From assembly GCA_051294375.1 (NCBI GenBank), contig CM119267.1, positions 13,029,081 to 13,093,080 on the forward strand: 64,000 nt of DNA, given 5' to 3'. Below are positions 22,101 through 25,100 of this stretch, piece by piece. The position numbers and the translations under genes were made by a program. Positions within the stretch are counted from its first letter, which is position 1. Each line of letters starts with the position of its first letter. Under the pieces are notes generated by a model that made no database searches, had not been told where the DNA came from, and saw only the letters and a program-made list of their open reading frames with translations. This stretch comes from Paraspadella gotoi (lineage: Eukaryota; Animalia; Chaetognatha).

Positions 22101-25100
22101 ACCCGCCGCTAAAAAAAATCGTCATTTGCAAACGTGTGAAGATTCTGACTCTATAATTCACTTTGTTGGTTCGTCGGTCTGCCCCCTCAATCTTGTCAGG
22201 CTTTCACTTATATCATGTCCGAACATCAAATTATGCGAATTGACCGTCTGTCTGGCTGTCTGTCTATCCCACCTTAGCAAAAAACTCCAATTACTCATAA
22301 TTGGATGGATGGATTGAAATGAAAATTTGTGATTAGGTAGGGAAGAGTTTGATTGAGCTGGATATGAAGTTTCGATGGAATCGTGCAAGTGGAAATAAGT
22401 TTAAATAGAAAAAAAAATCTAATTAACTATTTGAATGCCAATTACTCATGATTGTAAGAGGCGATTGACTTGAAATTTTGTATGTGGTAGGAAATTGTCT
22501 GATAAAGCAGCAAATCAAGTTTCAAATTATAATGAGTTTAAATAGAAAAACAAAAAACTGTTTCACTAATTCATTATGCTTTTTATATTAAATGTAACCG
22601 CAAAATGTATTAATTAATCTATTAATTAATTAGTTAATTAATTCATTAGTCAAATAGTTAATAAATAATTAATTAATCAGTCAATAAATAATCAATTAAT
22701 TATTCAATCAATCAATTTATTTATCTATTAATTAATTATTCAATCAATTTATTTATCAATCAATTAATTATTTAATCAATCAATCAATCAATTAAGTCAA
22801 TCATTATCGGCATTATTGTCATCGTCGCCCTCATCGTCGCTGTTGCTTTTGTCGTGGTCAGTGACGAAAATACTTAAAAACAAACATTTTGGATCAAATT
22901 AATGAATTGCTTAATTAATTAATTAAATTGAATTAAATAATTAATAAATTAATTACCGCTAATGATCGTGGGCAGATCCGACATTGTTTTCTCAAACTTG
23001 TTTTAATCTGAAAGATTTTTTTGTAGTAAAAACCAAAATCAATTTTATATCCAAATTTATATTGATTTTTTTTATTTGACTTGGCAATGAGCGGAGAAAT
23101 CTTCACAAGTTTGCAAATGACGATTTTTTTCTAGCGGCGGGTTGTTGTGTGTCACCTTGTACAGTAACTTAAAGGAAATTATTTTTTTTTCTTTTTAAAA
23201 TCTTTCTAACCGCAGCTTGGACGATCTTCTACGTGTTTGCTTCGATGCAGGGCGAAGTTCCGTGGAAAACTTGCGAAGGCTCCAACGGCACTACATTGGA
23301 GTGGGTCAGAGGAATTTGTCTGTCTCGGGTAAGGGGAACGACATTGATATTTGAAAATTGTTCTGACTTTAAACGAACTTAACAGGCAAAACGTTAAGTT
23401 AGTTTAAGAAAATAAAGGTTTTTGGAAGCAACAATTGTTTCGTCCAAAGGTTGAACGTTTCAATGAAAATTTGCAAATTACTTGTTTCACTATTTTCTAT
23501 TTTTATATTTTATGAAGGATTTACCATTTAATCTATATTCTTTAAATATTTATGTATTGGTTTCTTAAAAATTTGTTACTTATCATTATATCTAATTACT
23601 CATTTTGGGAAGGGGAAGTCAGTGTTGTCTTCTGGAAATAGAGGAAGTATGGCAACAGCCGGGTTGCCTGTGATGCCCATTGGGTTGGGGCATCTCACTG
23701 TTGGCTTTGGGGGCTTCCGACCCTCAGTGACGGTTACCCTAGGACGGTCTTGCTTTGCCAACGCAGAGGGAGGTCGTTAGGACTGTGGATGGAACACAAT
23801 GCCTGGGATGGTGTGTTCCCCCTGTGAGCCAATGGTATTGGTTAAACGATCGAGGACGTGAGGTGGTGTGAATATACCCCCACAGGAGCATCTATACAAC
23901 ACAAGGTTAGATTACAATCTATTAGAAAGTCATTAATGAAAAATCATAATATCTAATAGGCTGAACTGAAAGAGGTGGGAATGGATAATTTTTTGAGGGG
24001 GGACCAAAGTTCTATATATGTTATATATTTTTTTTTACCAATAGGGATAAGACTACCAAGTAGAATTGTATGTTCTGATAGGGATACATACTGGGGAAAG
24101 GTCTATAGGGGCACCTTTATGTCATGAATATAATTTTAAAATACTTTAATGAAAATATTTTTTTTTCTTTATTATGGTGGACTAAAATCCACCAACCGTT
24201 CATCAGCGGCCAGTTGGTGCCGGAGGCAAGTCATTGCCTCTCAACCCAAAAGGTCCGGGGTTCTAGCCCGGTGGTCGTCTGGCAGTTAACAGGGACGGGG
24301 CGCTTAACCCGCCTGTAACATGGTGTTACAGCCTGTCCGAAGCTCAGGGACTGCTTATATTGAACGGTTCTGTCATTAACACTTATCAATAATTACTGTC
24401 TCTTCATTGGTGAGCCCGACTTCCGAACACAACAGCAACAACACTTTCAGGCGACATGCCTCAACCTGGCGATGCACTTTCCGCCCACAACACATCAGGC
24501 GACATGCCTCAACTTGGTGACGAATTTTCCACCAACAACAACAATTCACTGAAGAGACGCAACAGACTTTCTCCCTACGGAGGGGGGGATGTATGGTGAC
24601 TAAAATCCACCAACCGTTCATCAGCGGTCATTGGTGCCGGAGTCAAGTCATTCGCCTCCCACCAAAAGGTCCGGGGTTCTAGCCCGGTGGTCGTCTGGCA
24701 GTTAAGAGGGACGGGGCGTTTAACCCGCCTGTAACATGGTGTTACAGCCTGATCCGAAGCTCAGGGACTGCTTATATTGAACGGTCGTCATTAACACTTA
24801 TCAATAATTACTGTCTCTTCATTATCCTAATTTTTAATTATTTCATTTTTGAATATTTTTTTATCTTTTATGTTTATACAATGGGAAGGAATGATTAAAT
24901 CCCAATTGACAATATATGAGACGATTGACAATATAAGAGTTCATTTGGTATTTAATATTTTCACTTTGATTTACAGTATAATATTCCTGTGTATAGATGA
25001 AGACAGAAGTCTTCAAAATATTATGCGCCAAATAAAAGTAATAGTATTACAATAGTTTCTTCATTAAATAAAAGCAAAAATAAAATTAACCTCTCATTCC

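Follow-up and report, generated by a model that had tools for sequence, protein, structure and literature searches.

An LTR element with tRNA-like heads, predicted P5-permuted twister ribozymes in both LTRs and a predicted 416-nt unit RNA

We describe a short non-coding LTR element (family A, 649 bp) in which each LTR carries a tRNA-like head directly followed by a motif that is well supported as a predicted P5-permuted twister ribozyme. The element lies in a stretch of 64,000 nucleotides, hereafter the window, together with related copies that share this arrangement. By its sequence it joins a Helenus-type TRIM with the layout of a plant LTR retrozyme. The two cut sites, read from the UAA motifs, are exactly 416 nt apart, as a preliminary description of this DNA had stated (Table 1). 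A 416-nt RNA without terminal repeats is a sound prediction from this anatomy, and its circular form is plausible.

The element and its relatives in the window

Two direct repeats spaced 416–418 nt apart were found in the region, and their alignment defines LTRs of 94% identity (5 substitutions and 8 gap columns over 236 columns). Between them lies an internal region of 185 nt, with a primer binding site (PBS) at its start and a polypurine tract (PPT) at its end, so that both lie inside the predicted unit, which holds a permuted LTR as originally proposed. The Trp primer named in the preliminary description is likewise borne out by the PBS match. Its sole mismatch to the published tRNA-Trp, base 24414, has no variant listed in sequencing run X1, which suggests that the host's tRNA isodecoder differs from the published one. 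The LTR boundaries agree with the contigs of X1: 20 diverge into other flanks before 24173 and 39 behind 24406. We dropped TG (24590) as the LTR start, since the target duplications of two insertions agree with TA instead; 4-bp duplications were found at three insertions, namely the family A element (TTAT), the family A solo LTR (AGAG) and the family E solo LTR (ATAG). Nine bases spanning the LTR end (24398–24406) are complementary to 24550–24558 in the internal region, a pairing that would loop out the PBS.

Table 1. Features of the family A element and of related copies in the window
Feature	Position	Strand	Basis or remark
Target site duplication, left (TTAT)	24169..24172	+	identical 4 bases at 24822-24825
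5' LTR, TA...CA ends	24173..24406	+	LTR alignment; X1 contigs leave into other flanks
tRNA-like head of LTR1	24206..24279	+	A box 24215, B box ~24259; relaxed ARAGORN 82.3
Predicted P5-permuted twister 1	24282..24354	+	predicted cut U24305/A24306; leave-out model E 1.4e-7
Predicted unit RNA, linear or circular, non-coding	24306..24721	+	UAA cut spacing
PBS, tRNA-Trp type	24408..24420	+	12/13 bases match the tRNA-Trp 3' end (Fig. S2 of PMC10886601)
48-nt tandem duplication, internal	24436..24540	+	sequence
PPT, then TG, then LTR2	24579..24589	+	sequence
3' LTR	24592..24821	+	LTR alignment
tRNA-like head of LTR2	24624..24695	+	relaxed ARAGORN 81.6, 1/300 shuffles as high
Predicted P5-permuted twister 2	24698..24771	+	predicted cut U24721/A24722; leave-out model E 4.4e-9
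Target site duplication, right (TTAT)	24822..24825	+	matches 24169..24172
Family A solo LTR, AGAG duplication, head and twister	53434..53666	+	twister motif 53541-53614; twister model E 9e-10
Family B, second two-LTR element	25139..25811	-	profile/descriptor search; 300 nt from the A element
Family C LTR (C23), twister with internal deletion	23650..23885	-	model E 1.1e-8
Family E solo LTR, TG...CA, ATAG duplication, decayed twister	27113..27377	+	profile search
Family C LTR fragment (C43), decayed twister	43611..43834	+	profile search
Family D LTR-like copy, nearest to A	56520..56745	-	model E 5.7e-4; ends undefined

The tRNA-like head is the predicted Pol III promoter of the element. Head scores lie below the standard ARAGORN threshold of 100, and at a threshold of 70 the program makes 196 calls in the window, so we used only shuffle-controlled scores. 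Under relaxed settings the heads of the 5' LTR, the 3' LTR, the solo LTR and the family D copy score 82.3, 81.6, 83.6 and 77.8, values reached by 1, 1, 0 and 3 of 300 shuffles, respectively. The C43 head scores 75.2 (4/300) and that of family E 61.6 (55/300); the two family B heads and that of C23 yielded no value. A pattern of A box and B box, written post hoc, has five matches in the window, all of them heads of this clan, for a shuffle mean of 1.46. By the box criteria used for Helenus, YGG and GGTTC are present in A and D, and TRGCY is exact in B, C and E but not in A; the Rfam tRNA model has no match on the head. The twister begins 3 nt downstream of the head, and in all eight copies checked there is no T4 run from the head to 95 nt beyond the cut.

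Four LTR families (B, C, D and E) are related to A, each with a twister motif and with heads that are tRNA-like. Families B, C and E were reached with a loose twister descriptor and a profile search, and D was found as a diverged A copy whose head and twister carry compensatory changes. The family B element has a Trp-type PBS (25556–25547), a G-rich PPT and a predicted unit spacing of 442 nt. The twister of its 5' LTR (25612–25695, minus strand, with the U at 25667) is canonical; its 3' LTR has a 20-nt deletion that spans the cut site, and no target duplication was found at this element. These families and the tRNA-like head were missed by the preliminary description, whose twisters, cut sites and repeat-less unit stand.

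The element sits in sense orientation within an SLC6 transporter gene (span 19830–50521), flanked by exons: the top named PDB matches of one exon are glycine transporters (E ~1e-22), and the five exons matching Pfam SNF farther on do so in the proper order. Elsewhere in the window are a divergent STAT-like gene (52–1838; weak match, E 0.02), an ankyrin-repeat gene (13410–16073) and an inverted duplication (27641–31335 versus 31588–35384; 98.5% over 1.7 kb and 94.6% over 1.6 kb) that is either a foldback element or an assembly artefact.

The state of the families today bears on whether any unit RNA is still made. Run X1, whose type we guessed, contains 0.38 of the words and yielded 1083 contigs; X2 and X3 yielded none, and pattern scans of metagenome and viral contigs gave no match. 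Because contigs are blind to ends, strand and level, we gave no weight to the greater summed X1 depth over the LTRs than over the internal region or to the lack of coverage of the flank 24925–25100. The families could be dead or silent, their ribozyme having mattered formerly, so that no copy makes the 416-nt RNA at present: the LTR pair is 6% diverged, the twister is damaged in the 3' LTR of family B and in families C and E, and the two-LTR copy of family A has a T4 run (at 24525), at which ~98% of the X1 depth has another base. However, a 4-U tract left the Pol III signal unreduced in one human-cell assay (bioRxiv 2020.09.11.294140). Moreover, 287 of the 1083 X1 contigs are at least 99% alike to the stretch compared, which takes in non-element flank repeats, with many different flanks, and host transcription could traverse an element that lies in sense inside a gene. 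We consider present-day silence of all copies improbable.

The twister motif

The preliminary description had proposed a twister in each LTR, and this predicted fold is now backed by covariation and by a covariance model trained on other families (E≤1.4e-7 for both LTRs). Compared with the twister layout in Table 1 of PMC8501958, the motif reads as a P5 permutation with P3. The UAA cleavage loop and the GA before T1 are present in all four A/D copies and in B, C43 and E. In the A/D alignment, pairing holds in 82 of the 83 cells of the twister structure, and four changes, located in T2, P3 and P4, are double-sided; all four stem from the single D copy, and relatedness inflates such counts. Both pseudoknots, T1 and T2, are fully paired in A/D, and one pair of T2 is changed on both sides. 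The B/C43/E alignment has 58 of 66 cells paired and six pairs changed on both sides, with covariation in T1 (two double changes), P2, P1 and P4.

The covariance model was trained on B, C43 and E alone, with the A and D copies left out, and it recovers all three A copies (E 9e-10, 4.4e-9 and 1.4e-7) as well as D (5.7e-4). Nine of its 16 matches in the window are clan members, and the best match outside the clan has E 0.16, these E-values being rough. A sequence-only profile built from B, C and E recovered one of the four A/D copies. The loose descriptor matches seven times, versus 1.15 times per shuffled window, and five of the seven are clan members; its matches at 44110 and 55633 (minus strand) were dropped, as the covariance model finds neither. 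Judged by these comparisons, a chance match is not the explanation of the motif. Three stretches of another interspersed repeat family (39232–39408, 43849–44338 and 54477–54643) match the twister model weakly (E 0.2–0.75).

Rfam finds no twister at gathering score anywhere in the window, family A has no twister match at E up to 10, and family E has none either; weak matches of the LTR to snoRNA and other Rfam models were set aside as chance. The family B 5' motif does align to Twister-P5 (RF02684; E 0.0079), with 22.3 bits for a gathering cut-off of 37.6. The missing match in A and the sub-threshold score in B are what would be expected if the motif were a structured piece of the LTR with a twister-like appearance but no cleavage activity. 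But both pseudoknots covary across families, the permuted layout fits the Schistosoma twisters in Table 1 of PMC8501958, and B aligns to the Twister-P5 model at all; we hold a mere look-alike to be very improbable.

Reading the motif as a twister, the stems P4, P3 and P5 form in A and D, P2 has three base pairs with a bulge, and P1 is a single base pair. Twister 1 has in addition a mismatch in P2 and a P4 one base shorter than those of LTR2 and the solo LTR. The 5' strand of P2 is shortened by one base in both A and D, while P2 in B and E is 4 bp long; the compensatory changes in A/D suggest that selection persisted after this base was lost. Natural twisters cope well with imperfections in P1, P2 and P4 but poorly with changes to the pseudoknots or to catalytic positions, and ~94% of those tested cleave (PMC11662667). 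Because flaws of the kind present here were tolerated in that study, we favor activity, and the predicted twister likely cleaves.

The predicted unit RNA and its replication

Cleavage at both sites would release 101 nt of LTR1, the 185-nt internal region and 130 nt of LTR2. The unit lacks a terminal repeat because the cut falls in both LTRs. The longest ATG frames on the circular unit are 47 aa (plus) and 81 aa (minus). Folded as a circle, it has a z-score of −0.71, with 21 of 100 shuffles as stable, and 57% of its bases are paired versus 58% in shuffles; the linear fold has z −1.18 and the corresponding family B stretch z −1.37. Shuffles thus fold as well as the unit, which lacks the strong self-pairing typical of retrozymes (reported as ~70% or more), and this counts against the circle; the folded unit is an aged copy, as the divergence of its LTRs indicates. 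We judge that at least one copy of the family probably produces the unit RNA in vivo.

Because the cut lies in the middle of the ribozyme, the twister motif can outlast replication only where the sequences on its two sides are rejoined or were never separated. We propose that the unit is closed into a circle and copied as such. Transcription would likely start from the tRNA-like head or arrive as host read-through, and cleavage by the twisters in both LTRs would leave the 416-nt RNA without terminal repeat, which a host ligase would likely close. A borrowed Gypsy-type enzyme would then copy the circle from tRNA-Trp primed at the PBS; none of the 88 ORFs scanned in the window matches a reverse transcriptase. 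The minus strand would cross the junction, and a single lap would cover one complete LTR together with the PPT and the internal region, making the first, R-mediated jump unnecessary, and a PPT-primed plus strand with the usual PBS jump would rebuild the two LTRs. In retroviral reverse transcription, one lap plus a PBS-mediated plus-strand jump yields two LTRs. True rolling-circle reverse transcription, which the preliminary description had invoked, is not required.

The idea of a circular template is not new, because it was published as a model for plant retrozymes, where it was argued from the lack of a terminal repeat and where the same LTR-ribozyme layout yields circles (PMC4918200). That RtcB-type ligases join such ends, as had been suggested for this element, has precedent: RtcB circularizes animal retrozyme monomers in vitro (PMC7229834) and, in human cells with the Tornado system, closes Pol III transcripts that twisters have cut (bioRxiv 2020.09.11.294140). 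We give the circle route as a whole an even chance, and RtcB closure, by analogy with these systems, comparable odds; that the circle would be the main template of reverse transcription we rate just short of even. The junction 24721→24306 recreates ordinary LTR sequence, and junction RT-PCR alone is for this reason not diagnostic of a circle. A ligated circle would rebuild the twister, which might then cut it again; ensemble folding, in which P2 has probability 0 throughout and pseudoknots are outside the model, did not demonstrate that the circle masks its ribozyme.

The ends of the unit are predicted to adjoin by pairing, an arrangement that also speaks for closure, with p ~0.8 (without shuffle control) for a terminal helix of 24310–24312 with 24716–24718 and p 0.95 in the linear fold for P5, which forms between the two ends. 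Such ends could be held together without ligation, so that after cleavage at both sites the 416-nt RNA serves as template in linear form and the reverse transcriptase crosses from its 5' to its 3' end. A jump without homology should, however, leave indels at UAA, and the site is clean in the three A copies and in D, B, C43 and E; the 5'-OH and cyclic-phosphate ends are also substrates of RtcB. We therefore consider an unligated template improbable.

A further possibility concerns what the twister is for. It could be a slow or leaky maker of RNA ends, replacing the T-run terminator found behind the tRNA head in many Helenus LTRs; only transcripts cut in a single LTR would be copied, via the classical R-region jump, and the 416-nt piece would be a by-product. 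A transcript from ~24206 to U24721, for example, has a repeat of ~100 nt at both ends. By eye, the twister stands, 3 nt past the head, where many published Helenus LTRs have their T-run (PMC10886601), and the RNA from which Cassandra replicates is a Pol III transcript whose ends share a short duplication (PMC10886601). The short P2 and minimal P1 of A and D could slow cleavage, and the unit's structure is not unusual relative to shuffles. Against this, the complete ribozyme lies within the transcript in both LTRs, so that an uncut copy stays competent to be cut, and P1/P2 imperfections seldom lower cleavage (PMC11662667). Family B, moreover, has a canonical P2, and cypriniform Helenus LTRs have neither a T-run nor an evident ribozyme (PMC10886601, by eye), so a substitute terminator is not strictly needed. 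Genome sequence is unable to separate this route from the circle route; we regard copying of single-cut transcripts as a serious rival, less likely than the circle but more likely than an unligated template.

Relation to known systems and meaning

It is instructive to compare the element with the plant LTR retrozymes (PMC4918200, PMC7761336), which are likewise non-coding, with a ribozyme in each LTR, a PBS and a PPT, and which share the 4-bp duplication, solo LTRs and a double cut that gives a unit without R region (PMC4918200). Those elements combine a type III hammerhead with a Met PBS, whereas ours combines a predicted P5 twister with a Trp PBS; they measure 600–1000 nt and are ~70% paired, compared with 416 nt and 57% here. 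The present element also has a tRNA-like head in its LTR and a likely animal host, and its circle is a prediction. We propose that it works like a retrozyme but, because ribozyme type, primer type and self-pairing, which are defining features, differ, do not class it as one.

Helenus TRIMs (PMC10886601) are similar in being shorter than 1 kb and in having a tRNA-like segment with A and B boxes in each LTR, a PBS and a PPT. The 4-bp duplication is shared with animal Helenus elements and the Trp PBS with Helenus-2_SyJa, and some Helenus LTRs also begin with TA (PMC10886601). In contrast to these, the head here is followed by ~125 nt that contain the twister and no T-run. Pol III transcription from the head is unvalidated for Helenus too (PMC10886601), and the main text of that paper describes no ribozyme.

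Twisters on retroelements are known from Perere-3 of Schistosoma mansoni, whose T-variants resemble ours in being P3 twisters with similar P3 and L4 sequences and a weak or absent P1 (PMC8501958). Perere-3 has a single ribozyme at the 5' end of an autonomous non-LTR element, with the cut near the 5' end of the motif and neither LTRs nor release of a unit-length RNA (PMC8501958). Metazoan non-LTR retrozymes (PMC7229834, PMC4918200) are animal elements, as ours likely is, with ribozyme-released units of 170–400 nt that RtcB closes in vitro, and one group of them, in schistosome repeats, carries a tRNA; they consist of type I hammerheads in tandem repeats, without LTR, PBS or PPT. The synthetic Tornado cassette is similar in its Pol III transcript, two twisters and RtcB-joined cut ends, but mostly discards its ribozymes (bioRxiv 2020.09.11.294140); in the present element, a complete twister would be restored at the junction.

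No twister came up in a limited search of the published Helenus consensus sequences, which used four short twister-family motifs. Two Helenus families, Helenus-2_SyJa and Helenus-2_SyUm, have a motif that we take, from its core, to be a type III hammerhead. By eye, this hammerhead-like motif directly follows the head in Helenus-2_SyJa-LTR and Helenus-2_SyUm-LTR (cynipid wasp; PMC10886601 Data S1), has loop-loop complementarity and goes with a Trp-type PBS in both families; the main text of PMC10886601 does not remark on it. Unpublished insect elements with type III hammerheads are alluded to in PMC7761336.

Searches of the open-access literature turned up neither a described LTR twister nor a described Helenus ribozyme. 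A 2026 preprint still treats LTR retrozymes as primarily plant elements with a type III hammerhead, and twisters in retroelements have so far been described as 5'-end cutters of non-LTR elements. What appears new, as predicted from sequence, is a twister in LTRs, in a likely animal host, with a tRNA-like head coupled to the ribozyme, along with the hammerhead-like motif, read by eye, of the two wasp Helenus families. Tentatively, animals may hold overlooked LTR retrozymes headed by Pol III promoters, a natural Tornado with an RtcB-closed circle and a Trp-primed Gypsy helper, in which one ribozyme can stand in for another: five or more families here would use a P5 twister, two cynipid Helenus families a type III hammerhead.

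An LTR twister under structural selection across several families would be a second concrete job for twisters, and it connects Helenus elements and retrozymes, groups that have been described apart. The element offers a small, testable system for asking whether a circular RNA is truly the template of LTR-type reverse transcription. It also predicts that tRNA-headed TRIMs with long tails are worth screening for ribozymes.
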